DNA of 64,000 nt, taken from the IMG/VR virus record IMGVR_UViG_3300012016_000699, positions 1 to 64,000 of that record. One strand, 5' to 3'. The position numbers and the translations under genes are program-made. This document shows positions 3,163 to 37,500 of the stretch, one piece after another; within the stretch, counting starts at the first letter, position 1, and the number at the start of each line of letters is the position of its first letter. The DNA is from a virus. Lineage: Duplodnaviria > Caudoviricetes. Below the pieces are notes generated by a model. That model searched no databases and was not told the DNA's origin. It saw only the letters and a list, made by a program, of their open reading frames with translations.

Positions 3163-4122
3163 TTACATTAAAAGAGGAAGCCTTGAAAACCGCAGCTCTT
3201 CATAGTTCTTTCTCGCCGATTCCGGCGTATTGTTGGCGTAGCAGTACCGACACCCGTGGGCGCAGGTGTTGTAGTACCCGATATCCTTTGCTGCAGTGCA
3301 AAGGCAACAGTCGCGCTGTCCCTTGTCCTTGCCCATCTTGAGGACGCGCTTGGCGAAGTCATCGTCATTGGTGGCGAAGGACGATATCAGCTGGGCGTCG
3401 ATACAGGCATTGTGCTTGATGCCGAACTCGCTGAGGTCTGCCTTCTCGCTGCAGGTGGCCACCTCAAGGCTCCGCCCGGAAAGCCTGCTCATGAGCTTGT
3501 CGGCGAACTCCCTCTGCTCGTCGGCTGTCAGCTCCCGTGCGCCTGTCCCCCGCAGGTTGTAGCTGACCTTGCGGTAGGAGTTGATATCGGCAAAGCTGAT
3601 GACCAGCTTCGTCGGGAAGGTGTCGAGCCAGGAGTAAGTCTCCACGATTCGCTTCACTATCTCGTCGATGGTCAGCACCCCGTCGATGAGGAAGATGGGA
3701 TCCCACCGCCAGACCTGTCTGCCACGCCCCCACTCCTCCGCGATACGGCGGAAGATGGCGCAGCGCTCCTGGAACGGCGGCAGGTTGGGCTCCATTCCCT
3801 CCTTCTCGTAGTTGTTGAGAGTGTGCTGGAAATAGAAGCGGATGCCCATGTCATAATAAATGCGGCTTAGCATCGGTATCATCGGACCCGGGTTCTTCGA
3901 CCAGAACACTATGAACTTCGTCTTGGCAAAGCTGACATGCTGTGTCTGCTGGCTGAAGGGATTCACCCAGTCGCAGTAGCCTCGCATCAGCCTATTCATC
4001 ATCCAGTCGGCATAGAAGGCGGGGATATCCGTCCGACGGCTCGCGCTGATGATCTCCGGAGCGACGGCCTCGGCTGTGCTCCCGTCATCGAGCGTTATCT
4101 GTATTTTCTCGAACGTGCTCAT
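3163..4122 (-). CDS. DUF1848-family (radical-SAM-like) protein
   Basis: IISASRRTDIPAFY N-terminus, VFWSKNP, WRWDPI, C-terminal DIGxYNTCxHGCxYCYAN. Confidence 0.85.
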   Translation of the reverse strand: MSTFEKIQITLDDGSTAEAVAPEIISASRRTDIPAFYADWMMNRLMRGYCDWVNPFSQQTQHVSFAKTKFIVFWSKNPGPMIPMLSRIYYDMGIRFYFQHTLNNYEKEGMEPNLPPFQERCAIFRRIAEEWGRGRQVWRWDPIFLIDGVLTIDEIVKRIVETYSWLDTFPTKLVISFADINSYRKVSYNLRGTGARELTADEQREFADKLMSRLSGRSLEVATCSEKADLSEFGIKHNACIDAQLISSFATNDDDFAKRVLKMGKDKGQRDCCLCTAAKDIGYYNTCAHGCRYCYANNTPESARKNYEELRFSRLPLLM

Positions 4123-5165: not shown

Positions 5166-7169
5166 TTATTTCTTACCGCCCTTCTTGTTCTTCTTGCCCT
5201 TCTTCTCCTTGGCAGGCTTGGCCTTCTCCTCAGCAGGAGCGGCTTCCTCTGCAGGAGCCTCGGCAGGTGCTTCCTCGGCAGGTGCTTCCTCAGCAGGTGC
5301 CTCCTCTGGCTGATCGTCTGCAGGTGCCTCGTTCTCTGCGGGAGCGGCTTTGGCCTGTGCCTCCTGCTCCTGGGCTGACTCGGTCTGAACCTCTGCGGCA
5401 TCATCTGGAGCCTCCTCTGCCTCTGCAGGAGCTTCCTCGGCAGGCTTCTCCACCTTTTCCTCGGCCTCGCGCATCTTCTTCACGTCCTTTTTCAAGTCCT
5501 CGATCTTCTTGCGGAGGTTGTCACGCTGCTTGGCATACTTGTCGTCGAGCTCCTTGGTGATGGTTTCCTTGACTTGCGGGAACTGGTCGCTGACGAAGAT
5601 TTCGAGGATGCCTTGTAGGCCCTTGGCGAAATTCACGGACTTCTCGGCAAGGCACTGGCGGATGAACTCACGCTTGATGGCATTGCGGTTCTTCTGCAGC
5701 ACCTCCTTGTAGTTCTTGAGGAAGTCCTTGTCGGTAGTCCATTCCAGTCCGAGCGACTGCTTGAACTCATAGGAGAGGTGCATCAGCATGAGGGCTATGA
5801 GCACATCGTTCTCCGTTGCCCCCATGGCCGTGTTGAGCTTGCCGTAGTCACCCTCCTCGACGGCCTTACGATAGCGCTCAATCTTCTCGTCATGGCGCTT
5901 GTCCGTCAGTTCCGTCAGCTGGGCCTTGTACTTCATCGTCTGTTCCTGCCTCATCTGTCGTGACTCGTTGTTGAGTCCCATCGACTCGTCCTTGATGTTG
6001 TACACGTACTTCTGTTCGCCCGATAGGTGGCCGTTGAAGCAGACCTCATAGACAGGCACGATGTTACCGTCCTTGACGCCGATGTCGAAGATCGCCTTCT
6101 GGTGCGCCCATGTCTGATGGCGCTTGAGGTAGAACTCCTCCTCTGTAAAGTCCTCCCGTTTTGGCTCGACAGGGTTGACCACCGTCTTTCTGATGCCGAT
6201 GGGACTGACCTCCACCTCATGCGCCCGTGCGAATGAGAGGATTTTCTCGTTTTCCTTCTCCGTGCCCGTATAGACGACCTCCGTCCCTGCAGGCTGGTGC
6301 TTCGCCTCGCGGAGGATGTGCTGCACGGTCTTCAGCATGAAGCAGTCACGCTTCATACATCTTGGCGATGCCACGTCTCCCGTACCGGACGGATCGTTGG
6401 CGGTATTGAGCGGACACTTCGCACATGCTGGCAGCATCTCCCCGTCTGCGAATCCGTGGAATGACTCGTCGTTCAGAGGGAACTTTGCTGTCTCGAGCTT
6501 CATCATCACATTGGAGTCTATCATCTCCTTCAGCTCCGGGATGTTCGGGAACTTGTACTTCCATCGGGCGATACACTCCGGTGTGAAGCATGTCTCATAG
6601 AGGACTTTCTGCTGCTCTGGCGGCAGCTTGCTTATCTCAAGAAGATGGGTCAGCACAAGCGGGCCGTTCTGCATGAGGTCAACGAACTCCTGTATGGTGC
6701 CGTTGAGGCGGAGACGGCTGCGGACGAACGTCTCGCTCTTGCCGAGCATCTTGGCCACCTGTATAACCTCCGTACCGAACTCGTTCACGAGGCGGTCGAT
6801 GGCATTGGCCTCCTCCATGGGGTCGACGTCCTTGCGCTGCATGTTCTCAAAAATCATGGCCGTCAGGGCCTGCTTGTCATCGAGGTCTTTGACGATACAG
6901 TCTATCTCCTCGGAGCCTGTCAGCTGTGTGGCACGGTAGCGGCGCTCACCACACACTATCTCATACTTGGCGAACTCCGTCTCCTCATTCTCGCTCTTGA
7001 CCGGACGGACGGTGATGGGCTGCAGCAGGCCGTTCTCCTTGATGGACTCGGCCAGCTCGTTCAGCTCATCGGCATTGAACGTCTTGCGTGGGTTGTTGAT
7101 ACTCGGGACGATGTCCTTCAAAGGGATTCTCCTAACTGTGCCTGCTTCGGCGATTTCATTCTTTTTCAT
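5166..7169 (-). CDS. parB: ParB/RepB/Spo0J family protein with long C-terminus and acidic EEAPA tail
   Basis: NPRKTF...ELAESIKENGLLQPITVRP...IVCGERRYRA, ENMQRKD, HTH region. Confidence 0.85.
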   Translation of the reverse strand: MKKNEIAEAGTVRRIPLKDIVPSINNPRKTFNADELNELAESIKENGLLQPITVRPVKSENEETEFAKYEIVCGERRYRATQLTGSEEIDCIVKDLDDKQALTAMIFENMQRKDVDPMEEANAIDRLVNEFGTEVIQVAKMLGKSETFVRSRLRLNGTIQEFVDLMQNGPLVLTHLLEISKLPPEQQKVLYETCFTPECIARWKYKFPNIPELKEMIDSNVMMKLETAKFPLNDESFHGFADGEMLPACAKCPLNTANDPSGTGDVASPRCMKRDCFMLKTVQHILREAKHQPAGTEVVYTGTEKENEKILSFARAHEVEVSPIGIRKTVVNPVEPKREDFTEEEFYLKRHQTWAHQKAIFDIGVKDGNIVPVYEVCFNGHLSGEQKYVYNIKDESMGLNNESRQMRQEQTMKYKAQLTELTDKRHDEKIERYRKAVEEGDYGKLNTAMGATENDVLIALMLMHLSYEFKQSLGLEWTTDKDFLKNYKEVLQKNRNAIKREFIRQCLAEKSVNFAKGLQGILEIFVSDQFPQVKETITKELDDKYAKQRDNLRKKIEDLKKDVKKMREAEEKVEKPAEEAPAEAEEAPDDAAEVQTESAQEQEAQAKAAPAENEAPADDQPEEAPAEEAPAEEAPAEAPAEEAAPAEEKAKPAKEKKGKKNKKGGKK
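5251..5310 (-). repeat. 15-bp coding tandem repeat (EEAPA)
   Basis: gcaggtgcttcctc(g/a) units repeated within the ParB tail. Confidence 0.7.
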
Positions 7170-7189
7170 AAACTGTTCTTTTATTCGAT

Positions 7190-7228
7190 TGATAACTTAT
7201 TTGCATTGAATGATAACTTATTTGCATT
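7190..7228. repeat. 18-bp direct repeat with 21-bp period upstream of parB
   Basis: tgataacttatttgcatt at 7190-7207 and 7211-7228. Confidence 0.85.
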
Positions 7229-7248
7229 TGATGGAAGAACGGAGAGGC

Positions 7249-7875
7249 CTACGCCTCGTCCATCCAGTCCTTGATCTCCGGCTTGCGCCATGAGTTGAAG
7301 GCGTAGTCGTTGATGAGGTTTTCGTACGATATGGTCATCGGTGAGCCCTCGTCAATCTGTACGTCGACGGACTCCTCGAAATGCTGGCACGGCATGATGA
7401 TTGCCGTGATGTCCTTTGACTCGATGACAGCGGCCGTCGTCTGGTCTGACTTGTAGAGGACGGCCTCCTTGAGCTTCCCTGCCACGTTGAACACGGTGAG
7501 AATTGATACCAGGCTCTTGACCTTGTACGTCTTGTGGAGGATGGAAACCCTGTCATCAGGAGATGAAGTCTCTTTCCTCAGATGGTACTGGCAAGCTGCA
7601 TACAACTCCTTGAGGTCTATGCGGTGCTCATATTCCACCCGCTCCTTGGGGATGACACTCCGATAGTTCGGGTACTTGCCCTCAATTTCCTCGCCAGACA
7701 GATGGATAATCTTCCCATCGAAATTGGTCTTGCCACACTTGTAGACGACGAGCAGGTGTCCGTCACTGCCGACACATTCCCCTTCCTCGTCGAAGTACAC
7801 TCCGTTCATCACTGGTCGCAGCTCGTCGTTGGCCACGACATTGGCGTACATCGCCTTTAAGATTTTCTTGTCCAT
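7249..7875 (-). CDS. DNA polymerase III beta-clamp-like protein (partial clamp fold)
   Basis: DELRPVMNGVYFD, GSDGHLL, EGKYPNYRSVIP resemble DnaN central-domain motifs; about 208 aa, likely start MDKKIL. Confidence 0.65.
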   Translation of the reverse strand: MDKKILKAMYANVVANDELRPVMNGVYFDEEGECVGSDGHLLVVYKCGKTNFDGKIIHLSGEEIEGKYPNYRSVIPKERVEYEHRIDLKELYAACQYHLRKETSSPDDRVSILHKTYKVKSLVSILTVFNVAGKLKEAVLYKSDQTTAAVIESKDITAIIMPCQHFEESVDVQIDEGSPMTISYENLINDYAFNSWRKPEIKDWMDEA

Positions 7876-9293: not shown

Positions 9294-10049
9294 TCATTTT
9301 GCTTCTGATTTTTGTTGGTTATTAATAAAGCGGAAGGTCTTCCCTTTGGCGGTCTTACCTTTCCTTGTTCTATCACTAAGGTATGAAGGCCTCACGCCGA
9401 TGCTTGCGGCAGCGTCGCTGATGGACGGGAACGTCTCACCAGTGTCCTCGCAGAGGACCGGCTTCATGAGTTTCCTGCAGCGATGCTTGGCAGCATACGG
9501 GTGACGGATGTTATAGCGGCGGAGTGCTTCCTTCTGCTTGGCCTTCTCCTCCATCGTGAGCTGGTGCCCTTTCTTGAACTCGCCCTCCGGGTTGTAGTGC
9601 TCGCCCTTCTTGAAACTTGAGGGGTGCCCGAGGCGCTTATGCTCGAATTCCGCCATCTTTTGGTGCTCCATGGTGATGGCATGCTGCCACTCCTTGGACT
9701 TCCAGAAACCGAGCTCCCTTGCCTTACGGATGAGGGTGCGGACGCTGACACCGAGGACGCCCGCAAGCTCCTCGTTCTTCGTCGTAGGGAAGAGGCGCTT
9801 GAGGTCATCGAGCATCCTGCGGTTCCAGTAGATGCGCGTACTCAGCCCCTTGTGCTCCGTGATCCTGCCCGTCACACTGTCATGGTGCAGGCCGTCAGGA
9901 ACCTTCCGGGTCCTGGCGTACCAGTCCCGCTTGTTGGCCTTCGTACAGTCCTTGCACCAGGAGGCGGTCCAGCCTCTCTTGGAAACGTAGAACTCGCGGA
10001 GCCACAGCTTGCGGCCACAATGAGGACAGACCTTCTTCCGTATCTTCAT
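9294..10049 (-). CDS. Zn-finger/NUMOD-type DNA-binding protein
   Basis: N-terminal CPHC...WCKDC, HTH-like LAGVLGVSVRTL, FKKG repeats, C-terminal NUMOD1-like KPVLCEDTGETFPSISDAA. Confidence 0.65.
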   Translation of the reverse strand: MKIRKKVCPHCGRKLWLREFYVSKRGWTASWCKDCTKANKRDWYARTRKVPDGLHHDSVTGRITEHKGLSTRIYWNRRMLDDLKRLFPTTKNEELAGVLGVSVRTLIRKARELGFWKSKEWQHAITMEHQKMAEFEHKRLGHPSSFKKGEHYNPEGEFKKGHQLTMEEKAKQKEALRRYNIRHPYAAKHRCRKLMKPVLCEDTGETFPSISDAAASIGVRPSYLSDRTRKGKTAKGKTFRFINNQQKSEAK

Positions 10050-21711: not shown

Positions 21712-22044
21712 TTAGAATTTTAGTCTGAAATATCTGTAAAAATAGTAGTCATCGCTGATTTCGTCCTTTGACCGCGATATTAGCATTTTCCCGAAAGTAA
21801 AAAACTTCCGGCTGATGCCTTCTGTCTGCTTCTTTAGGTTGTCTGTCAGCTCCATTAAGGACTTATGCCCGCGAGGGAAATTCCTGATGACGAATGTGCT
21901 GCTTTCGTAGAACGTTAGTTCCGTCTGTGTGGGAGTACCATGCTTCCATCCTGCCGATACATAGTCTACCTCTTCTGCAACCTCCAGTTTGCAGAAGAAC
22001 TCTTCACGGGAGATTTCTGTAATTGCTTGTTCCATGCTATTCAA
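21712..22044 (-). CDS. hypothetical protein
   Basis: 110-aa ORF. Confidence 0.55.
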   Translation of the reverse strand: MNSMEQAITEISREEFFCKLEVAEEVDYVSAGWKHGTPTQTELTFYESSTFVIRNFPRGHKSLMELTDNLKKQTEGISRKFFTFGKMLISRSKDEISDDYYFYRYFRLKF

Positions 22045-22894
22045 AGAAATTTAATGTTAGTTGCTCAGGTACCTTTGCTTTCTGCTCCTTTGGAGCCTCG
22101 GCCTTGACTTCCTCCGGCACCTTGACGGTCTCTGTCCGCTTCGTTGCCTCGGCCATCCAGCCCATCGCGGCCCTGCAGCTGATGAACTGCATAGGCTCGT
22201 CGGTGATGCGGATAGTGGGACAGCCGGGGAAGGGGTACAGCCCTTCGTTGATGATGTAGCCCGTGAATGCCTTGTGAGGCTCGCAGAGGGTGTCATGGCA
22301 TACCACCTCGCCGAACATACCATGGGCACACATATTGACAGCCGCCATCTTACAGCAGATACGGTCGATGTCCTCACCGATGAAGTAGTAGGCACGGTGG
22401 CCACGCTCGCAGTTTGTAGCATGGGCGGCCAGCAGCATACGGGCAGACCCGCAGGCACTGTCATTGGCCACCACACGCTTGCCGAAGGCGTTGCAGGTGA
22501 CACGAGGCTCAGTAGTCTCGTCCCTGTCATCGAGTACCACCTTCGCCATGAAGTCGCAGATGGTGTGAGGGGTGAAGAACTGTCCCTTGTACTGCTGGGA
22601 CGTCCTGCCGACATTCGACATGAAGAAGTCGCCGAAGGCATCGTACCACCCGCGGGCGTCGATCATCCTCTGCAAGACGTACAGCCATTCCCTCATCAGC
22701 TGGAAGAACAGCTGGTTCTGCTCCTGGTTGTACTTCCAATATGGGTTGGGCTTCGGATTCGGGTTGAAGTTGAAGATGATGAACGTCAGCAGGTCGTCGA
22801 ACACGGTGATGGCGTCATGGTGCGTGACGCTCACGATGTGGTTGAACTGCTTCTCGAACTCACGGAGCTCCTTACTGCATATGTAGTCACTCAT
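22037..22894 (-). CDS. N-6 DNA methylase-like protein (HsdM-like, short)
   Basis: DAFGDFF...GQFFTP...DSACGSARML...GEDID...AVN; no NPPF/Y motif seen. Confidence 0.75.
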   Translation of the reverse strand: MSDYICSKELREFEKQFNHIVSVTHHDAITVFDDLLTFIIFNFNPNPKPNPYWKYNQEQNQLFFQLMREWLYVLQRMIDARGWYDAFGDFFMSNVGRTSQQYKGQFFTPHTICDFMAKVVLDDRDETTEPRVTCNAFGKRVVANDSACGSARMLLAAHATNCERGHRAYYFIGEDIDRICCKMAAVNMCAHGMFGEVVCHDTLCEPHKAFTGYIINEGLYPFPGCPTIRITDEPMQFISCRAAMGWMAEATKRTETVKVPEEVKAEAPKEQKAKVPEQLTLNFFE

Positions 22895-25396: not shown

Positions 25397-26005
25397 CTAT
25401 TCCAACCTCTGCAGCACCTCCACGGATTTGACCTGTGCCTTTGGATTTTTTGAATATGCCTCGACTCTGGATTTTGTCTTCCACTTTATCAGTCCGAAAA
25501 GGATGCTATGACGCCTTGCCCATTCGACGATCACGATGCTGTCGCGAACTTCATAGCCTATAGAGGCCGTATTCGTTGAGTCAATGCGCACATCTATGGT
25601 GGCGTATTCGTCCTCATAATGCGTGGACAGTTCTCCGAAGGGCTCTACATTCACGGGGGCCTTAACACTGTCACGGGTGCTTACCTCGATGTGTGAAATC
25701 CCATCCACATCCTTTGGACGTACGTCAGAGGCACTCTTGGCCACCTTCATCTCTTCAGGGTAGCGGGTCTTGATGACCTTGTCCGTGACTTTCATTGGCT
25801 CTGACGACACAACGGTGATATCGCCTTTATCGGTCTTGACGACTGTAGAGGACTGTGGCGCCTGCCCGATGTTGGCGGCTGTGTTCTCCAGCTGTGAGGC
25901 CTTCTTCTCGAGGGCTTTGCACTCCAGGGTGAGGCGGTATGTCGCATAGCCCAGTCCAAGGACGGTGAGTGCCAGCAGGATGATTGCGTAGAATGACTTT
26001 TTCAT
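25397..26005 (-). CDS. Spanin-like lysis accessory protein (DUF6549-like)
   Basis: N-terminal TM anchor plus coiled coil; RDS...ILFGLIKW...SKNP C-terminus as in Bacteroidales phage genes next to endolysins. Confidence 0.55.
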   Translation of the reverse strand: MKKSFYAIILLALTVLGLGYATYRLTLECKALEKKASQLENTAANIGQAPQSSTVVKTDKGDITVVSSEPMKVTDKVIKTRYPEEMKVAKSASDVRPKDVDGISHIEVSTRDSVKAPVNVEPFGELSTHYEDEYATIDVRIDSTNTASIGYEVRDSIVIVEWARRHSILFGLIKWKTKSRVEAYSKNPKAQVKSVEVLQRLE

Positions 26006-26041: not shown

Positions 26042-27298
26042 TTATACCATGAATCCAGAGAAATGGTTCATAAGCATCTCAAGACATCCGTCGCCTTCCC
26101 ACGGGAACAGAATGACGTTGCCGCTGATTCCTCCGATGGATTTCTCCTTGACCTCCCTGTCCCTGCCGAAGTGTCCGTATGCGGCCGTCTCCTCGTAGAT
26201 GGGTGTGTTAAGGTTCAGGGTCCTCGTGATGGCCGACGGCGAGAGGTCGAACAGCTGCATGACATGTCCTGCGATCTCCGTGTCGCTGAGGCTTGTGTGG
26301 TTTACCCTGGTCGTCACGTTGACGCTGACTGGCTGCGCCACGCCGATGGCATAGGCGAGCTGTATCGTCACTTCCTCTGCCACGCCAGCTGCCACGAGGT
26401 TCCTTGCGATGTATCGTGCCATATATGCGGCGCTGCGGTCTACCTTAGACGGGTCCTTGCCCGAGAAGGCTCCGCCGCCGTGAGGGGCGTAGCCGCCATA
26501 TGTGTCGACGATGATCTTACGGCCTGTCAGTCCGCTGTCGCCTGCAGGCCCTCCGATGACGAAGCGCCCGGTCGGGTTCACCAGCAGGCGGTAGTCCTTG
26601 CCCAGCAGCTGGCGGGCGATATCCTTGCAGCGGCTTTCCGGGATCTGCGAGATGACGACGGGGAACACGACAGCCTTGAGGTCGTTGGCTATCATCGACT
26701 GCATCTGCAGGTCGCTCTGGGCGAACACCTCATGCTGCGTACTGACGACCACTGTGTCGATGCGTACGGTACGTCCCTCTTCATCCGTCTCCACCGTCAC
26801 CTGTGCCTTGCTGTCCGGACGGAGGTACTCCATCAGCCCGGGACGTTTCCTGCGGACCTCCGAAAGCGTCTTGACGATGAGGTGTGAAAGGTACAGCGGG
26901 AACGGGATGAGCGCCGGTGTCTCGCTGGTGGCGTAGCCGAACATCATTCCCTGATCGCCAGCGCCCTGCTCCTTAGCGTCCACGCCCTGCGCGATGTCAG
27001 GAGACTGCTGGTGCATGGCATCGAGGATCCCGACAGCATCTGCAGCAAAGCCGTAGCAGGCCTTGTCATAGCCGATGCGTCTGATGACCCTGCGCACGAT
27101 ATCCTGTACGGGAGCCTTCACGCGTGACTTCACCTCACCGCCGACGATGACCTGGCCAGTGGTGACGAACACCTCGCACCCTACATGGCTGGAGGTGTCG
27201 TGGAGGATATAGTAGTCGAGGATGGCGTCGCTGATCTGGTCAGCGATCTTGTCTGGATGTCCCTCGGACACCGACTCTGATGTAAATAGTCTCTTCAT
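26042..27298 (-). CDS. metK: S-adenosylmethionine synthetase
   Basis: LFTSESVSEGHPDKIADQISD, GAGDQG, GRFVIGGPAGDSGLTGRK, GGGAFSGKDPSKVDRS. Confidence 0.97.
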   Translation of the reverse strand: MKRLFTSESVSEGHPDKIADQISDAILDYYILHDTSSHVGCEVFVTTGQVIVGGEVKSRVKAPVQDIVRRVIRRIGYDKACYGFAADAVGILDAMHQQSPDIAQGVDAKEQGAGDQGMMFGYATSETPALIPFPLYLSHLIVKTLSEVRRKRPGLMEYLRPDSKAQVTVETDEEGRTVRIDTVVVSTQHEVFAQSDLQMQSMIANDLKAVVFPVVISQIPESRCKDIARQLLGKDYRLLVNPTGRFVIGGPAGDSGLTGRKIIVDTYGGYAPHGGGAFSGKDPSKVDRSAAYMARYIARNLVAAGVAEEVTIQLAYAIGVAQPVSVNVTTRVNHTSLSDTEIAGHVMQLFDLSPSAITRTLNLNTPIYEETAAYGHFGRDREVKEKSIGGISGNVILFPWEGDGCLEMLMNHFSGFMV

Positions 27299-27307
27299 TT
27301 CTTGTTT

Positions 27308-27814
27308 CTATTTTTTGTTATTCCCTTTCTTCGCTGGCGGATAGGCGGTGTTGTCTGCGTTAAGGTGCAGCAGCACCTCATTGTAGTAGCAGTGAGCGAT
27401 TCTCCTTGCCTCGTCAATATCATGGTACTCGCAGTTCCCGCACTCTTCCTCAGTAGCACCTGGAACAGGACCGTCATAGGTGGCAATCCACGCGAACATC
27501 TCACGGACGGACCCGCTGATGTCGTCAACGCCGACATTCCCCTCCACGATGAGGTAGAAGCCGGTCATGCAGCCCATCGGGCCGAAATAGACGATGCGGT
27601 CGGAGAAGAAGCTCCTCGTACGGAGGAACGTCGCACCCAGGTGCTCGATGGTATGTACGGCTGCACCGTCCATTGTGAAGTCGCTGTACGGCTTGCAGAC
27701 GCGTATGTCGAATGTGGTTACGACTCCGTCGCTTCCGACGCTGTCCTGGCTGTGCACATAGAGGCCTCTATCCAGCCTCCTGTGGTCTATCTGAAAGCTC
27801 TTAATCCGTTCCAT
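27308..27814 (-). CDS. luxS: S-ribosylhomocysteine lyase (AI-2 synthase)
   Basis: SFQIDH, HTIEH (HxxEH), GPMGCMTGFY with catalytic Cys, CGN metal Cys. Confidence 0.96.
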   Translation of the reverse strand: MERIKSFQIDHRRLDRGLYVHSQDSVGSDGVVTTFDIRVCKPYSDFTMDGAAVHTIEHLGATFLRTRSFFSDRIVYFGPMGCMTGFYLIVEGNVGVDDISGSVREMFAWIATYDGPVPGATEEECGNCEYHDIDEARRIAHCYYNEVLLHLNADNTAYPPAKKGNNKK

Positions 27815-28529
27815 TGATCTCCCTTATTAGTTCCATGAGCATGTCGAACGACCGGTCTGCCATGTCCTTCCAGAACCCGTCGTACTTCTTGGTGTGCTGT
27901 GCATCCCCGACAACGTCGCTGATGACGCGTACCGGCAGGAACGGCACACCATAGCGGCAGCATACCTGTGCGATGGCGCCGGACTCCATGTCGACTGCCT
28001 TGGCACGTCCGCAGGCACGCTTTGCTTTCATCCTGTCGGCCATTGTCTCCATAAACCAGTCACCCGATACGATGGGGGCACGATGGATGCCGTAAAGGCG
28101 CTTCTTGCTGGTGTACTTCCGCAGGATCTTGTCGAACCCCTTGCCGCTTGCGTTGACACCGATGCACGGGAACCACTCAGGCTCTCCCTGCACCTGTCCG
28201 CGTGCGTTGTTGCCTCCGCACCAGACGTCACAGTACTTCACGCCGGAGCCGACGACGCAGTCACCGCTGGAAACCCTCTCGTCGAGCGATCCGGCCACTC
28301 CCGTGCTGATGACATAGTCCGGGGAGTACTCCGTGATGAGCGTATGGGTGGCGATGGCCGCATTGACCTTGCCAATGCCCGACCTGCAGATGAACACTTC
28401 GTCGTCGCCGAGCTTTCCCGTATATACCTGCAGGCCCGTGAACTTCACGGCCTCAGACTTCTCACTGACACGGCAGAGGATGAGCGCCAGCTCGATATCC
28501 ATCGCCACGATGATTCCTATCCTCTTCAT
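27801..28529 (-). CDS. mtnN: 5'-methylthioadenosine/S-adenosylhomocysteine nucleosidase (Pfs)
   Basis: IGIIVAMDIE, SGIGKVNAA, STGVAGS, VDMESGAIAQVC, RVISD. Confidence 0.93.
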   Translation of the reverse strand: MKRIGIIVAMDIELALILCRVSEKSEAVKFTGLQVYTGKLGDDEVFICRSGIGKVNAAIATHTLITEYSPDYVISTGVAGSLDERVSSGDCVVGSGVKYCDVWCGGNNARGQVQGEPEWFPCIGVNASGKGFDKILRKYTSKKRLYGIHRAPIVSGDWFMETMADRMKAKRACGRAKAVDMESGAIAQVCCRYGVPFLPVRVISDVVGDAQHTKKYDGFWKDMADRSFDMLMELIREINGTD

Positions 28530-28762
28530 TCCGGGAAAATCTCCTTCTCGTTGATGTTAAGAACCGTCATCTGCAGTCTCTTCTCCTTGGATAGCGTACA
28601 ACAGTACACCTTGCCCGTGAAAAGGAGCTTTAGCCTCTCCCACAAGGAGAGACGCCAGCATGTTACTACCTGCGGCACCAATTCGTCCACGTAAGCGGGG
28701 ATTGGGGCCTTTCCGACGATGGCAAGCGACTTGTTAGCTTGTTTGAACTCAATCTGCTTCAT
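28526..28762 (-). CDS. small phage hypothetical protein, first gene of the SAM operon
   Basis: 78-aa ORF, ATGA-coupled to mtnN (TCWRLSLWERLKLLFTGK). Confidence 0.65.
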   Translation of the reverse strand: MKQIEFKQANKSLAIVGKAPIPAYVDELVPQVVTCWRLSLWERLKLLFTGKVYCCTLSKEKRLQMTVLNINEKEIFPE

Positions 28763-28794: not shown

Positions 28795-28845
28795 CGTCTG
28801 CAAATATACGAAAATATTGCAAAAAGTCGTAAGTTTTACTATTTT
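28795..28845 (-). promoter_or_regulatory. Putative promoter for the mtnN-luxS-metK operon
   Basis: TATATTTG (TAnnTTTG) at 28801-28808 in an AT-rich gap. Confidence 0.6.
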
Positions 28846-28902: not shown

Positions 28903-28935
28903 AAAAAAGGGGCAGAAGAGCCCGTCTCCCGCCCC
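28903..28935 (-). terminator. Intrinsic terminator after the endolysin
   Basis: GGGGCGGGAGA-loop-TCTTCTGCCCC followed by a T-run on minus strand. Confidence 0.75.
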
Positions 28936-28989: not shown

Positions 28990-29109
28990 TCATATGCTTC
29001 TTACCAGGCAGAGCATGGCGGCGGCTGCTAACATCCCGAGAATGGAAAGCAGGCAGCCTGTCAGCCGGCTCTGCCTCCAGAGCGCTTCGTAGTACTCTTT
29101 GTCTGACAT
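28990..29109 (-). CDS. 39-aa single-TM peptide coupled to the endolysin stop
   Basis: MSDKEYYEALWRQSRLTGCLLSILGMLAAAAMLCLVRSI, read manually. Confidence 0.4.
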   Translation of the reverse strand: MSDKEYYEALWRQSRLTGCLLSILGMLAAAAMLCLVRSI

Positions 29110-29747
29110 CATGCGGTCGGTTTTATGCCGAACTCCTTCTTGAAGCGGCGCAGGAGGAACTTTCGGTTGGCCAGTCCGTTGGTGCCGCCGTTGATGCGCT
29201 TCGTCAGCCCGTCAGCGTCGTCGGCATCGGCCCATTTGTTACATCCGTTCTTCCACCAGAAGAAGAGAGCTGTCTTGACGCATCCTGGAGCCTTCGCAAC
29301 GAGGTCGGGGTTCTTCACGACGTCTCCGACGCAGAATTCCGAGTCTGAGTACTCCTTGTAGTTCGCCTTTCCTGTCAGGCCGATGAGTCCACGGCCACGG
29401 TAGCGCCATCCGTCTCCGGAAGCCTCCTGTCCGTTGCCCATGCGTCCGCCATAGACGCGGTTGGCGATCATCTCAGGCTTGCGTGCGTAGGCCTCTGCCT
29501 CGGCACGTGTCTTGAAGTACTTGGGGAACGTCTTCAGCAGTCCGTCTGCGGAATAGTTCAGGTTCTCCTCGGTGTAGCGGAGGTTCCCGCTCTCGTGGAA
29601 CACTTGCGAGAGGAAGTGCGCCACCCTCATGGGTGTGTTCACGCCAAACGGCTCGGCCCACTGGTTGAAGTAGGTGACGAAGTCGTTGATGCGCGGCTTG
29701 TATAGCTCGGGCACAGCCCGTAGCAGCTGAGCTTGTGTTATCACCAT
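29109..29747 (-). CDS. Endolysin, glycoside hydrolase family 19
   Basis: AHFLSQVFHESG...ENLNYS...IANRVYGGRMGN...YRGRGLIGLTG...INGGTNGL. Confidence 0.92.
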   Translation of the reverse strand: MVITQAQLLRAVPELYKPRINDFVTYFNQWAEPFGVNTPMRVAHFLSQVFHESGNLRYTEENLNYSADGLLKTFPKYFKTRAEAEAYARKPEMIANRVYGGRMGNGQEASGDGWRYRGRGLIGLTGKANYKEYSDSEFCVGDVVKNPDLVAKAPGCVKTALFFWWKNGCNKWADADDADGLTKRINGGTNGLANRKFLLRRFKKEFGIKPTA

Positions 29748-31347: not shown

Positions 31348-32022
31348 TTATGGCCACTCGCCGAGGGGACCGTTGACGTTTGGGATGGGGAACGCAGGAC
31401 ACCATTCAGTAATATCTCCTGTTACCGCATCGATGAAGATAGGGTCTCCGAAGCTGCCGATCACCCATTGTGCGTTGCAGTTACGCGGGCCTACAGGTAG
31501 TCTGAGCACCATGCCGTTAGACTTCTCAGGGATGACTCCGTTCCATTCTTTCAGTCGTTTCAGAACGTCCTCAACACCAAGCTTGATTTCGCAGTTGCTC
31601 AAGTCGCAGTCTTCTGTCCACACATCCTGAATCCTATTGGGGATAATCGTACCTTTCTTGATGTTTGTAGAAATGTACTGTACCCAAGGTCCATCTTCCC
31701 AGTAGAAGTACACGCTGGTAATGTCTGTGATGTGCAGGTCGTCGAGGTTGTCTGTCTTGATGAAGTCGTTGAACGACACCTGCAGGTTACGCCACTGGTA
31801 ATCGTGTCCCTTAACCAGGTTGAACATCGTCTGACGATGCAGGGCTACGATGTTCTTTGTGCCTGCGGTGAAGTCCTGCAGCACGCCGTCGTAGTCGGCG
31901 CTGTGCGCAGCCACCTCTTTAGGCTGTTTCTTATTCTCGGACTGACAGCCTGAACAGCCCGTAGCCATGATGCTGACTATCGCCAGCAAAAGGCCCATGA
32001 AAATAAACTTCTTCATATTCAC
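31348..32022 (-). CDS. Lipoprotein
   Basis: MKKFIFMGLLLAIVSIMATG-C lipobox; PepSY-like IFIDAVTGDI at the C-terminus. Confidence 0.7.
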   Translation of the reverse strand: MNMKKFIFMGLLLAIVSIMATGCSGCQSENKKQPKEVAAHSADYDGVLQDFTAGTKNIVALHRQTMFNLVKGHDYQWRNLQVSFNDFIKTDNLDDLHITDITSVYFYWEDGPWVQYISTNIKKGTIIPNRIQDVWTEDCDLSNCEIKLGVEDVLKRLKEWNGVIPEKSNGMVLRLPVGPRNCNAQWVIGSFGDPIFIDAVTGDITEWCPAFPIPNVNGPLGEWP

Positions 32023-32529: not shown

Positions 32530-33996
32530 CTACTTCATATTATGTTTCTTAATCAGTTGTTCTATCTCTTCGTCTGACGGAGGCGTGAAGCCGAGGGCTA
32601 CAGCTGAGCATAGCTTGAAACAGGGATAGCGCCCGGAATAGTCTGCCGTGATCGACGAGAACAGCGGCAGCTGGTCATCTTCTCGCGCCTTGTCGAGCTT
32701 GGCCTTGTTGTCTGGTAGGCCCGTCCATACCTTGTACGGCTGGCCTTCGAACAGAATGCTCATGAGGTGTTTCGGCTTCGGCGGCTCAATGCCGACGGTG
32801 TTGCCTCCGTTCTCAAGAACCTCCCTGTCGTAGCGGTCCTGCTCCCTGCGAGGTATGACGTCCGGCTCAAAGTCGACGATGACAAATGGCTTGCCGATGA
32901 GCTTGTTCGCACCTAAGTCCGAACCCTTCAGTCTTCTCTTTCCGTTTGGATATGCGGCCTCCGCATGTACTTCTCCTATATCCGTCATAGATTTACCTGT
33001 TAATGTTCTGAATAAATGCTTGCAGTCTCCCCATTTCGCCATTCCCTTGAGGCTTCCTACCACCTCCTGCCTACGCTTGCGGCTCCTGACTTTTGCCAGC
33101 CTTCTCGCTGCCTTCTGCTTGGTGCGCTTGCGCAGCCTTGCCTTCCTGCCGTCGTAGACGAACCCGAGGAAGTCGATGCCCTCGCTCAAAGGCCTCACGA
33201 CCTCGTTGGGCTTGATCACTAGTCCGAGTCTGGCCACCTGCTCGTGCATGATATCACGCAGCATCCACAGCTTCCGCTTCGACCCTGCGAGGATCACGAT
33301 ATCGTCACAGTACCTGTAGTAGTACCTTACACCGAGGACATCCTTGAACCAGTGGTCGATGGCGCTCAGGATGATGTTGCCATAGCACTGCGACGAGCGC
33401 AGCCCGATTGACAGCCCCTTCGGCATCATCGTCACGAAGTTCTGCAGCATCGGCAGCAGGATTGGATCCTTGACATAGTGCAGGACCACCTCCCACATCA
33501 GCTGCTGGTCTATCGACTCGAAGAACTTGCGGATGTCGCACTTGTAGAAATACCTTGTGCCTTCGCGGTCGTTCTCGATATCATGGCGCATCTTCTCAAA
33601 CAGGTGGTGCATACCCCTTCCGGGGATGCTCGCTGCAGAGGTTCTGATGACGGTCGGATAGACCTTGTCCTCCACGATGCGCATGATGGCGTTGCAGCCG
33701 ATACGGTCCTCGACGCACGGGCTTTGTACGATTCTGTCCTTCGGCCCGTCGGTGACCTCCATTTCAGTATATTTGATGACTCTGAACGTGCCCGAGGATA
33801 TCCTTCTGGTAAGGCGTTCGATGATCTTCTTACGCCTCTTCCTGTAGTAGGTCTTCCTGCCTGGCAGCTCTATTGTCGTTCCGTCTGGAAGACGCTTCTT
33901 CCTATCATGCAGTTGGTCAACCACCTCGTCGAACGCCCGGTCCATGTTGTCCGGATCGACGATCAGCGGTATCAGATTTCCGAATCTCGTTGGCAT
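32530..33996 (-). CDS. DGR reverse transcriptase with C-terminal extension
   Basis: KCDIRKFF, GLSIGLRSSQ, YRYCDD, GIDFLG; adjacent to TR/VR. Confidence 0.95.
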   Translation of the reverse strand: MPTRFGNLIPLIVDPDNMDRAFDEVVDQLHDRKKRLPDGTTIELPGRKTYYRKRRKKIIERLTRRISSGTFRVIKYTEMEVTDGPKDRIVQSPCVEDRIGCNAIMRIVEDKVYPTVIRTSAASIPGRGMHHLFEKMRHDIENDREGTRYFYKCDIRKFFESIDQQLMWEVVLHYVKDPILLPMLQNFVTMMPKGLSIGLRSSQCYGNIILSAIDHWFKDVLGVRYYYRYCDDIVILAGSKRKLWMLRDIMHEQVARLGLVIKPNEVVRPLSEGIDFLGFVYDGRKARLRKRTKQKAARRLAKVRSRKRRQEVVGSLKGMAKWGDCKHLFRTLTGKSMTDIGEVHAEAAYPNGKRRLKGSDLGANKLIGKPFVIVDFEPDVIPRREQDRYDREVLENGGNTVGIEPPKPKHLMSILFEGQPYKVWTGLPDNKAKLDKAREDDQLPLFSSITADYSGRYPCFKLCSAVALGFTPPSDEEIEQLIKKHNMK

Positions 33997-34093
33997 GTAT
34001 GTATGAAGTTCTTCGTTTTCGCAGCCATAGCATTTTCGGCCTGCCTTCGCAGTCTACTCACCCATGATCGGCCACGACCTGAGATGTTCCGGC

Positions 34094-34132
34094 TTTCCAA
34101 TACTTTCCAGTAGTTTTCCAATACTTTCCAGT
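34094..34132. repeat. 18-bp direct repeat with 21-bp period in the DGR spacer
   Basis: tttccaatactttccagt at 34094 and 34115. Confidence 0.8.
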
Positions 34133-34286
34133 TCTTTAAGCACTGGAATGGAATTATTGCTGTTGCCGAGGCTCCGATTCCTCGCCGACTGCCATCATCC
34201 TTCCCGAGGATGTACGCCGTAGCGACGATTGGCTCCGGGACGATGCAAGCACGTTGCAGTCCCGTGAAGCAGATTCTTTCCGATTT

Positions 34287-34402
34287 AGCAGAGACGCGCG
34301 CCGTTGTTCGTGTTCGAGTTCGTCGAAGCGTTATTCGTGTTCGAGTAAGCGACACCCGCGTTCGCGTTCGCGTTGTTGTTCGAACGGCCCAACACACGGC
34401 CT
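34287..34402 (-). repeat. DGR template repeat (TR)
   Basis: AAC-rich; reads GRVLGRSNNNANANAGVAYSNTNNASTNSNTNNGARLC. Confidence 0.95.
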
Positions 34403-34459
34403 CGTGGAATCTTCCGCCTTTTGTGTTCATACCTTTTTTCCTTTGACTCGATGGGAAGC

Positions 34460-34472
34460 GGGCCTGCGGCCC
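34460..34472 (-). other. GC-rich mini-hairpin downstream of VR (candidate DGR target-recognition hairpin)
   Basis: GGGCC-GCA-GGCCC on minus strand between the target stop and TR. Confidence 0.4.
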
Positions 34473-34525
34473 TACGAACGCGCTCTCCGCACGACGTCCG
34501 GCCACAGTCCCACTGCATTTCCTAT

Positions 34526-37500
34526 TTATTTGATGTCCTCCTCATTCTCTATTTCACCGAAGAAGCAGAGACGCGCGCCGACGTTCGTGCCCGAGACCGC
34601 CGAAGCGTAATGCGTGTTCGAGTAAGCGACACCCGCGAACGCGTTCGCGTAGTAGCTCGAACGGCCCAACACACGGCCTAGGCCGTTATAGGAGGACTGA
34701 TAAGCTGCGTAGCAGTTGGCCCAGCTGGTCTCTGCAGTGTAAGAAGACACAACGATATCACAGTAGCGTCCGAAACGTACACGTGCGACGCATGTACCCT
34801 GGTTGGCAGACTCTGCCTTGACGTTACGCTCTTGTCCGTCCTGCTGGAGAATACGATAGATGTAGTCAACGACCCATCCTGTGCCCGTCTGGGCTCGATG
34901 GGACTTGATGAATGCGTCGAACGACGGAGCGTTCATACAAGCCTTATCCATCCACTCAAAGAGTGATCCGGTCCAACCTTCCAAGCCCCACATCTTGTTG
35001 AGCTGGCTGGTGTTGCTACCTGAAGCACCAGGCATAAGCGTAATGTCAGAGTCGGCAGCACCGATGCTGTCACGGATACCAGTGGTGTATGACGGCGTAC
35101 CGCCTGCACCAACGATGCTCTCGCAGTCACGGGTACCGAACCATGCCATCATGAGGTTGGCCAGGTCCTTCGATGTTTCGTATCCGACTGTCGTGTACTC
35201 ACCGTTCTGGACTCCTGTCAGTGCCGTGCGGACACGGGCGAGGTTGAAGAAGTCCATTGCCGTACCGTTGATGGCGATGGTTGGCAGTGCTGTCGGGTTG
35301 CCATCAGCATCATAGGTCCAGGAGATATTTGTCGAAGTATTGTTACCACGACTGGTTGCTTTTCCGCTGAGTGATCTCAGACCGCCCGTAGGCGTACCGC
35401 CAGTGGTGATACCAGGGGCATAGCCCTGCCACAGTCCGACGAGTTCCGGAAGGTGCTCCACCCAGTCCGGCTCGATGGCCTCTATCTCCTTCGAGTCTGT
35501 GAGGATAACCTCCGGCAGCTTGGCTGCGCTGAGCTTCGTACATGCGAAGTACAGGTTCGTGGCTTCAGCAGGGATGCTGAGGAATACGTAATCGCCGATA
35601 TCGTTATCAAAGTCGGCAGGGTTGATGACCACACCGTTCTTCTTCACGTCCGTCATCTGGAAAGTGAATATCTGGATGATGTTATCGAAGTCATCGGTGA
35701 AGAGGCAGCAGCCCAGCTTGTCCGTCTTGTCGAGGTAGCCCGGGAAGCGCACCTGCTTCATGCCCTTGACCTCCACTTTGTAGGTGTCGAGGCTGTCAGT
35801 GGTGAAGAACAGCGACTCGTCGATGGCGTCTCCTACGCTGTGGCGGCTGTTCAGAGGCAGTCTGTCCGCAATCTTCGTCAGCTCCGTCAGGGCCAGGCGT
35901 GTGGTTACGGTTGCCGAACTCTTCGGCTGGGTTGTCTTGAACGACGGAAGGAAGTACTTGCGTGCGTTCTTGTAGTCGTTGACACCCTTATACCAGTAAT
36001 GGGGCACGTAGAGGAATCCGTCACGCTCCAGCACGGACGATGATCCCGTATGGTCTGCATTGCTGCCATTGGCGAGCTTCGCATAGTTCTGTCTTGACAA
36101 CTCCTCCACATGCAGCTTGTGTGTGTCGGGGTTGACATAGGCCAGCACGGGAACGCAGTGGTCGTGTATCAGCTTCACGTGACCAGAAGCGTAGTAGCCG
36201 TTAGGGTGATCGATGGTCGGAGTGACGCCGGAACGGTAGTCATAGCCCGTCTTGTTGTCGACATTCGTGATGTTGGCAGGATCAGTCTCAAGATCGTCAA
36301 AGACATACTCAGAGTACTGGCACTCCTCCAGATCGAGGCCGCAGAGAGCGAAGAAGCTCTTCATTGCCTCGAAGTCGTCAACAACATCAAGCAGCTGCAC
36401 GGAACCGATCAGAGCGGGATAGGTCTGCTCCGTTCCGTCGGCCGTAAGTCCGCGGTAGCCAGACATGAACGGACGGAGCATGCTTGAGCGTACGCGTCCT
36501 GTCATGCCCTCGATACGGACATGGGTGATGTTCGAGCATTGCTGCATGATGGCCTGCCAGTCAAGGTACGGGCACTCTGCGAAGTTCAGCGCAGTGATGT
36601 TGCTCGTTCCCTGCAGCGTCAGGCCGCTCTGCTCGAGCTTCGGCAGGTAGCGCAGCGTGAGCGCCTGCAGCGTCGACGGGAGCACCAGCGTAGTGATGGG
36701 CGCACCTTCGGCAAGCTTCACGGTGGTGAGGGCTGTGCCGCCTGCAAGCAGGGTCTTCAGACGGGTCTGCTTCGACAGGTCGAAGAGTCCGGCAGTACCA
36801 GTATGTACAGCTGTCTGGCCGGTGATGTCGACATACTCCAGCTTCGAGATATTACCAAGAGTCAAAGGAGCGTTACTTACACCCATAGTTGCAGGCATCA
36901 CGAGCTTTGCAAGCATGGTACACAGAGACAAACCGACAGTACCGTTCAACTGAGAACCCATGTTCGTAAGGTCGAGCTCACGCAGGCAGCTTGCACCACC
37001 GAGCATCAGCGGGTCGTTCGTAGCCAGTGTTCCTGTGAACTGGAGAGTCAGGTTCTCGCCTGCGGCAACCTTGGTAGGACCTTGCAGCCAGAGACCGTTG
37101 AGCTTGTAACCGAAATAGTACAGGTCGCCAGATGTCAGCTTCATAGAAGAATAGGCATCGCCAGCGTTTCTGACTACAGTGAACGTCACGACATCGCCGT
37201 TATAGTTTCCTGCGCCATAGCGGGCATCAAGCAGACGTGCACGGTCAGCAAGGAACTGTCTGATGTGATCCTCTCTGCTACCAGTCAGAGTATAGACGTA
37301 GTTCATGTTTTCGATGGTGTCGATGTACTTGAGCTTACCTGACTTGTTGTACTGACGTGGACTCCAGTTGCCAATCATGGTGCCGATAAATTCATCGAGC
37401 ATCACCTGTGTTGACATGGCGTTACGGAGATTAACGGCGCATGCTTTCAGTTCTTCCTCGAAGTTTGCAAGCACAAGACACCATAACCATGAGTTATGAC

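Follow-up and report, generated by a model that had tools for sequence, protein, structure and literature searches.

A phage orf78-mtnN-luxS-metK operon in the lysis region of a gut Bacteroidales prophage and its probable role in SAM supply for DNA modification

The activated methyl cycle of bacteria comprises a small set of well-described enzymes. MetK forms S-adenosylmethionine (SAM) from methionine and ATP, the nucleosidase MtnN (Pfs) cleaves S-adenosylhomocysteine (SAH), and LuxS finally yields homocysteine and 4,5-dihydroxy-2,3-pentanedione (DPD), the precursor of autoinducer-2 (AI-2). In the present study we analyzed a viral operon that encodes all three enzymes together with a small protein, Orf78. 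It lies at positions 26042-28762 of the IMG/VR virus record IMGVR_UViG_3300012016_000699, of which the first 64 kb of 101,963 bp constitute the window analyzed here; G000 denotes the genome of the whole record, and further G- and L-numbers are our labels for the genomes and loci compared. The genes are arranged on the minus strand in the order orf78-mtnN-luxS-metK within the lysis region of this 102-kb prophage. We consider it probable that the operon is a phage-domesticated unit which supplies SAM and clears SAH and 5'-deoxyadenosine for phage DNA modification, with AI-2 arising as a by-product.

Kieft et al. reported that metK, mtnN and luxS occur in viruses, with an enrichment in samples from humans and a partial link to Prevotella, that luxS co-occurs with mtnN and metK with dcm, and that there is purifying selection (10.1101/2021.01.05.425418). 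In Table S1 of that study, mtnN (gene 133), luxS (gene 134), metK (gene 10) and two dcm genes are recorded for a single rumen contig of 340 kb. The passages available from the same study describe no three-gene operon, no position in the lysis region, no link to an operator of methyltransferase genes and no functional test. Likewise, no account of the three-gene operon, its position in the lysis module or a functional test was found in the further literature, which covered few subscription papers. A second related system are the phage genes cmoA, cmoX and cmoY, in which cmoA supplies carboxy-SAM (Cx-SAM) to DNA-carboxymethylating enzymes, often together with ParBc proteins (PMC12783734).

The first gene of the operon, orf78 (28526-28762, minus strand), encodes a conserved viral hypothetical protein of 78 amino acids (aa). 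It is followed on the same strand by mtnN/pfs for a methylthioadenosine (MTA)/SAH nucleosidase (27801-28529, 242 aa), luxS for an S-ribosylhomocysteine lyase (27308-27814, 168 aa) and metK for a SAM synthetase (26042-27298, 418 aa), with a 4-nt ATGA overlap, a 14-nt overlap and a 9-nt gap at the successive junctions. MetK (480.5 bits against TIGR01034, cut-off 309.4) and LuxS (174 bits against NF002604, cut-off 158) exceeded the cut-offs of the curated NCBIfam models, as did MtnN that of TIGR01704 (134 bits, cut-off 74), with the futalosine and DeoD models remaining below cut-off. Matching structures were found in the PDB for MetK (E 1e-115) and for MtnN among the MTA/SAH nucleosidases (E 1e-35), and LuxS matched B. 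subtilis-type LuxS structures (E 6e-22). Moreover, residues E13, M181, E182, R201, S204 and D205 of MtnN and H14, D16, K17, E42, D115, K164, K261 and K281 of MetK are invariant across the phage clade, as are the MetK motifs GHPDK, GAGDQG and GGGAFSGKD. For LuxS this applies to H54, E57, H58, C82 and C125 in 17 clade members, which comprise the HxxEH metal motif, the third metal ligand C125 and the catalytic cysteine C82. Judged from the sequence, the three enzymes appear intact and functional, in agreement with an earlier note on this DNA that had described three tightly coupled, full-length genes with intact motifs. The same note left the fourth conserved gene, orf78, as well as the operon's own upstream terminator and promoter unmentioned. 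Orf78 gave no Pfam, PHROG or NCBIfam match and only unnamed viral clusters in the ESM Atlas, and no homologue was retrieved outside the cassette. It is 82-87% identical in relatives; in L001 the gene (7050-7285) is not intact with promoter spacing and the three enzymes kept, and it is therefore dispensable there.

Phage genes are located on both sides of the operon, as had been claimed. Upstream lies a GH19 endolysin gene (29109-29747, minus strand; phrog_181, E 4e-76), in the place of which close relatives have an Amidase_3 endolysin. The downstream neighbour encodes a DUF6549 membrane protein (25397-26005, minus strand; PF20186) that may be spanin-like by its position, and in relatives this gene comes after the holin. 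Only 36 nt without a strong terminator separate it from metK in G000, where it is probably part of the operon's transcript.

The same block was found between the endolysin and holin/DUF6549 genes in five distinct relatives (L001, L010, L012, L015 and L017), whose LuxS proteins are 62-74% identical to that of G000. More distant gut phages (L376-L378, LuxS about 50% identical) also carry it at this site, with an extra open reading frame (ORF) before metK in L380. Across both junctions, three further assemblies show 99.98-100% identity to G000; they may derive from the same sample or from sibling ones. We determined dN/dS by the Nei-Gojobori method at dS 0.65-1.4 and obtained 0.08-0.14 for orf78, 0.10-0.19 for mtnN, 0.19-0.32 for luxS and 0.11-0.20 for metK. 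All four genes are under purifying selection, luxS being the least constrained. The G+C content at third codon positions (0.70-0.77) is similar to that of other phage genes, and the best identities in the sample of the likely host family are only 51% for LuxS, 60% for MetK and 45% for MtnN. The LuxS tree has a 94/93 branch that separates all Bacteroidales-phage sequences from every cellular LuxS sampled, and host MetK and host MtnN form their own groups apart from the phage copies. As the trees were midpoint-rooted and the phage branches are long, we claim separation from the host copies and not a number or direction of transfers.

These results bear on the possibility that the block is an assembly chimera or a passive cargo of recently captured, decaying host genes. 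The record is indeed a provirus cut from a longer contig, and mtnN and luxS are adjacent in many bacterial chromosomes. However, the presence of the block in an unchanged position in many divergent phages, the low dN/dS, the phage-like base composition, the low identities to the host family and the separate host clades in three trees make this explanation extremely improbable, and a chimeric assembly is ruled out by conserved synteny, selection and trees. The gene trees which the earlier note had proposed as a check thus place the phage copies of all three enzymes apart from those of the host, and there is good support for its claim of an activated-methyl-cycle module belonging to the phage itself.

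A viral scan with the LuxS alignment resulted in 148 confirmed matches, 80 of which were kept for gene context; in most of these 80 loci mtnN adjoins luxS. The luxS and mtnN matches in INPHARED lay on faecal contigs without annotation or probably reflected host contamination, and they were left aside. The complete set occurs in a second arrangement, metK-mtnN-luxS behind the holin/endolysin genes, in gut and rumen phages (L031-L037, L039-L040 and L043-L044), and metK-mtnN-luxS is also present in L183, a prophage inside a Prevotella metagenome-assembled genome (MAG) which has its own metK and luxS. Hence, co-occurrence of the three genes was found in further phages, and its presence in several lineages makes it a recurring trait of Bacteroidales phages. 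The earlier note knew of phage metK genes but not of the three-gene set in a phage; the set is not unique, given these lineages and the contig of Kieft et al.

Other phages carry subsets of the genes. The combination of metK and luxS was found in L003, L027 and L047, and in L027 it directly precedes a DNA-modification/ParB/terminase operon. In the unrelated phages L002 and L038 a nucleosidase gene and luxS are located right after a Dcm-like gene or ParB genes. A very common human-gut lineage (L049-L103) has mtnN and luxS before the head genes, in the order HTH-mtnN-luxS just before scaffold and capsid genes, and in the variants L003, L048 and L101 of this type of lineage mtnN is replaced by nothing or metK is added. 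The sister cassette L375 at the same lysis site consists of orf78, mtnN, three other genes and metK, and luxS is absent from it within 20 kb. Short nucleosidase-like proteins of 150-176 aa, which fall below NCBIfam and Pfam detection, were observed beside luxS or metK in L002:1951-2403, L038:2423-2911, L365:5377-5907 and L366:3590-4111. G005 (L107) has a PAPS-reductase-like gene among its ParB genes, suggesting a different DNA modification.

Upstream of the operon, an intrinsic terminator with an 11-pair stem and U-run (28909-28935, minus strand) separates it from the endolysin transcript, and a similar stem and T-run is present in 6 aligned phages. The promoter has a Bacteroidetes -7 box, TATATTTG (28801-28808, minus strand), invariant in 6 phages and also found in distant relatives, and carries a palindromic operator-like site (28827-28841, minus strand) with the consensus TCGTAA-N3-TTACGA. 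The AT-rich promoters of G000 form two classes. Class A comprises about ten near-identical promoters carrying TTGCATATTTGAT (3009, 5003, 8945, 18443 and 25078 in the window and 70352-93354 in the genome), a motif which was also seen in G003, a distant phage, and at the G001 repressor locus. Class B, defined by the palindrome, comprises only three promoters, namely those of the Sak4 operon (100959), of the ParB-ParB-ParB/methyltransferase operon (73372), and of the orf78-mtnN-luxS-metK operon (28841). At no more than 1 mismatch the palindrome has 3 sites in 102 kb compared with 0.17 expected. In G001 it is likewise present at these three promoters, and in the partial genome G002 at the ParB and cassette promoters. 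With a matrix trained without cassette sites, 28841 came out as the top non-training site of the genome. The matrix also located the site in all 7 close relatives, each time at a distance of 18 nt from the -7 box, and 0-10 of 1000 shuffles reached such a score. A GerE-type HTH gene (101374-101757, 127 aa) just upstream of the Sak4 promoter encodes a candidate regulator of the class B promoters. No SAM or SAH riboswitch was detected in the Rfam search, in which only RT-3 in a diversity-generating retroelement (DGR) matched.

The promoter region is also relevant to the question whether the unit is expressed from the prophage as a moron, i.e. whether it serves lysogenic conversion by benefiting the methionine and SAM economy, the envelope or the aggregation of the host. 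The operon has its own host-type promoter and upstream terminator, its promoter lacks the class A operator of about ten other phage promoters and of the G001 repressor locus, and the record represents a provirus. Relatives, unlike G000, have a further hairpin that closes the operon before the holin. Moreover, a prophage metK was described to affect aggregation and biofilm in Streptococcus agalactiae (PMC8223999). However, the operator is common to the Sak4 and ParB/methyltransferase operons with their lytic-type functions, the lysis-region gene for the DUF6549 protein follows metK without a strong terminator in G000, in other lineages these genes follow holin/endolysin and are served by the holin promoter, and the hosts already possess metK and a route for SAH. 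A moron function is therefore doubtful in our view. The hairpin before the holin promoter is conserved (L010:11790-11900, L012:11820-11900, L015:12490-12560, L017:11860-11930 and L001:10510-10560), and its loop holds a second conserved stem, GTACTGC...GCAGTGC, which is possibly a regulatory RNA or an anti-terminator.

Five candidate SAM users are encoded in G000. The first is the ParB-fused class I methyltransferase (genome 70432-71832), whose operon (70432-73301) lies beside the terminase. Its predicted fold, modelled at a pLDDT of 86, matches class I methyltransferases, and about 300 protein clusters show conservation of the ParB-ParB-ParB/methyltransferase operon, in which the DFGCGK and NSV motifs do not vary. 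The others are an N6/N4 DNA methylase (genome 79771-80682), a radical SAM protein (genome 82998-83879), a DUF1848 protein (3163-4122, minus strand; PF08902, CxxxCxxC motif) as a candidate radical-SAM-like consumer, and a partial N6 DNA methylase-like protein (22037-22894, minus strand) as a candidate SAM binder, in which PF02384 covers residues 85-208 only and no DPPY-type motif was found. The 94% identity of the ParB-methyltransferase was rejected as a sign of special conservation, as TerL reaches 92-93% too.

Related genes are also found near this methyltransferase operon in other phages. In G164, G166 and G169, which lack luxS, mtnN and a cmoA-like gene are located just upstream of it, and the ParB operon of the metK-mtnN-luxS gut lineage begins with cmoA. 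G162 and G163, which likewise lack luxS, carry metK next to a short nucleosidase-like gene ahead of the holin. In 28 phages selected by their ParB-methyltransferase and not by luxS, metK was present in 5 and a nucleosidase in 4, whereas none had luxS. From such context patterns, metK, mtnN, luxS and cmoA would appear to be interchangeable SAM-cofactor accessories linked to DNA modification. The operator shared with the ParB/methyltransferase operon and the position of mtnN beside that operon in luxS-less relatives support a SAM flux for DNA methylation. Further support comes from the luxS-less cassette L375 and from the unrelated phages L002, L038 and L027, with their nucleosidase-luxS or metK-luxS pairs next to DNA-modification or ParB genes. 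cmoA is absent from G000, G001 and G002, and Cx-SAM chemistry is accordingly ruled out for the G000 phage; no PF00145 C5-methyltransferase was found in G001 and G002 and no PC motif in the ORFs of G000. A cmoA-like gene upstream of ParB-ParB-ParB/class I methyltransferase operons was observed in L362:2140-8805, L364:534-8715, L369 and L370. G164, G166 and G169 have two tandem methyltransferase copies, and in G186-G188 a C5-methyltransferase elsewhere in the genome is a possible partner of the cmoA-like gene.

According to the mechanism we propose, a phage regulator would switch on the operon after induction, for lytic development, together with the Sak4 and ParB/methyltransferase operons. MetK would then raise SAM from host methionine and ATP, and MtnN would clear both SAH from the methyltransferases and 5'-deoxyadenosine and MTA from radical-SAM and related reactions. 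LuxS would free homocysteine for remethylation to methionine by the host, and DPD/AI-2 would leave the cell as a by-product. We regard the ParB-ParB-ParB/class I methyltransferase operon as the probable main customer, for which SAM or SAH may be limiting, and the N6/N4 DNA methylase and the two radical-SAM-type proteins would be further customers. If DNA is the substrate of the ParB-methyltransferase, the likely outcome would be a modification of progeny DNA that protects against restriction.

Several observations weigh against SAM supply for DNA modification. The best structural matches of the ParB-methyltransferase are generic or tRNA methyltransferases with no substrate named. Most of the 28 phages selected by their ParB-methyltransferase have none of the three genes, and the module is therefore optional. 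DNA-methylase matches are weak in the large human-gut mtnN-luxS lineage, and the five phage records which have luxS without a nucleosidase are not explained by inhibitor removal. Furthermore, the distant relatives L375, L377 and L380 lack the class B site. Since the palindrome overlaps the -33 region and was noticed post hoc, it is sequence evidence for co-regulation and not proof.

We further investigated the host side in 61 genomes of the family of the Prevotella MAG (G006 and G008-G067). All 61 have metK, 32 have luxS and 26 ahcY; none has both and 3 have neither, so that luxS and ahcY are mutually exclusive in this sample. With metK in 61/61 and luxS or ahcY in 58/61, the phage copies contribute extra flux more than a pathway that is new to the host. 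In about half of the possible hosts the phage would duplicate functions already there, and in the others it would bring in AI-2 output.

This result bears on the question whether the module is kept for AI-2 itself, with MetK feeding the flux, in order to alter quorum sensing of the host or community, to change biofilms, or to cue induction via a host receptor. If the operon genes are expressed, AI-2 production would follow chemically, and with intact pfs and luxS the phage carries the signal synthase part of a quorum-sensing system. The grouping of Bacteroidales-phage LuxS apart from cellular LuxS, the retention of luxS without mtnN in five phage records and the use of AhcY without luxS by about 43% of the host-family genomes, where the phage would confer AI-2 output, point in the same direction. 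Moreover, AI-2 was reported to act on E. coli by a host-dependent route that leads to induction of prophage T1 (PMC6737242), and many dCache_1 AI-2 receptors were described in rumen bacteria (PMC9540692). On the other hand, no receptor of the LsrB/LuxP fold (PF13407) or with dCache_1 (PF02743) was found in the four luxS phages G000, G001, G003 and G005, and the only LuxR-family gene of G000 encodes the 127-aa GerE HTH protein without a recognised ligand domain. In addition, luxS is missing from L375, G162, G163, G164, G166 and G169 while metK or mtnN stay, it is the least constrained of the four genes, and the related prophage resides in a Prevotella MAG which already has its own luxS. As LuxS is present in 558 surveyed rumen genomes (PMC9540692), the phage signal would be one voice among many. 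Overall, retention for signalling appears unlikely. A more speculative version, to which we assign a similarly low probability, is that gut Bacteroidales phages have long kept their own LuxS lineage to make AI-2, which lysogens or infected cells would send out as an interspecies signal, as a new output where the host is of the AhcY type. Phage or host would sense it via an unrecognised receptor, possibly with participation of Orf78 or the GerE-type regulator, and thereby time induction or reshape biofilms. Of the functions proposed in the earlier note, SAM flux for DNA methylation thus gains support from the shared operator and the placement of mtnN, and use of AI-2 by the phage does not, given that no receptor was found in four luxS phages and that luxS is absent from L375.

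The phage could also act on the SAM pool in counter-defence, by restoring SAM or removing SAM-derived products against a host defence or competing phage that drains SAM or puts it to other use, such as SAM lyases or type III CRISPR signalling by SAM-AMP. SAM-AMP signalling occurs in Bacteroides. Phage MetK branches outside the host clade and could thereby escape inhibitors of host MetK, and both T3 SAM lyase and SAM-AMP signalling are known (cited in PMC12783734). However, extra SAM would feed rather than block restriction and SAM-AMP systems, and luxS is left unexplained, which makes counter-defence very improbable.

The record is classed as a provirus in IMG/VR with a CheckV completeness of 100% and encodes terminase, portal, head protease and tape measure. 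The virus is temperate, and its host is presumably a gut member of the Bacteroidales, probably Prevotella-like, based on the promoter type, the affinity of MetK and the related prophage in the Prevotella MAG. No close copy was found in GTDB genomes, the best identity among the matches listed being 52%. Although the provirus is classed as complete, no PF00589 tyrosine integrase and no repressor were found within the record. Its first gene is Cro/Xis-like, and in G001 a repressor-like gene lies just before the Cro/Xis-like gene; because the record starts at this gene, repressor and integrase are probably located outside of it. The window also contains the DGR, with a reverse transcriptase at 32530-33996, the Rfam RT-3 match at 34022-34230 and the template at 33991-34520. 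Two variable regions are each 88% identical to the template, one at the end of a 2195-aa protein (34564-34679) and one (G000 87675-87791) in a remote small gene at 87580-88185. A lipoprotein-like gene is mobile around the cassette; it lies upstream of the lysis genes here (31348-32022), and directly 3' of metK in L001 (9771-10472) and L015 (11775-12440). L047 has a lipoprotein-like gene between metK and luxS (9341-9964).

The operon is real, widespread and falls within the known viral auxiliary metabolic genes, as it is located between viral genes in a true viral genome, is kept in related viruses and is under purifying selection. Temperate phages of dominant gut Bacteroidales thus invest in a near-complete activated methyl cycle. 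This investment is long-standing, with phage copies of all three genes apart from the host copies and two or more gene orders known for the set. An uncharacterised phage DNA modification that is maybe cofactor-limited is suggested by the shared operator and by the neighbourhoods of mtnN or cmoA with ParB/methyltransferase genes. As induced cells would release AI-2 whatever the selective cause, some luxS genes and transcripts in quorum-sensing surveys of rumen and gut may be viral. Natural variants carry every subset of the three genes, which makes the question of metabolism versus signalling for luxS testable in this system.

Compared with described systems, the contig of Kieft et al. has the same three gene families as G000, with metK far from mtnN-luxS, and the available passages of that study read the viral genes as feeding sulfide production, whereas we read those of G000 as SAM supply. 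In an anaerobic digester virome a phage luxS was proposed to promote quorum sensing; it is a single sequence that clusters with bacterial homologues, reported without an operon or test (PMC13644194). Prophage 12/111phiA of S. agalactiae has a SAM synthetase gene next to DNA-modification genes, and a link to AI-2 was suggested. It differs from our operon in that it carries only metK, which is truncated, without pfs or luxS and in another phylum, and AI-2 was not measured there (PMC8223999). The cmoA/cmoX/cmoY system also places a SAM-cofactor enzyme beside phage DNA modification, and in G003, G164, G166, G169 and G188 the ParB/methyltransferase operon starts with a cmoA-like gene or has one close to its start. 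In contrast, G000 lacks cmoA, its closest relatives lack a C5-methyltransferase, and its enzyme is a ParB-fused class I methyltransferase and not CmoX. If the ParB-class I methyltransferase uses Cx-SAM, it would be a non-C5 carboxymethyltransferase, a kind of enzyme that was reported as not found (PMC12783734). The bacterial Pfs/LuxS activated methyl cycle shares enzymes and catalytic residues with the phage operon, and bacteria, the host family among them, commonly have mtnN next to luxS. As no homocysteine methyltransferase is encoded in the operon, the phage cycle must close through the host. Unlike its bacterial counterpart, the G000 set is phage-borne, joined to metK and present in separate phage lineages.

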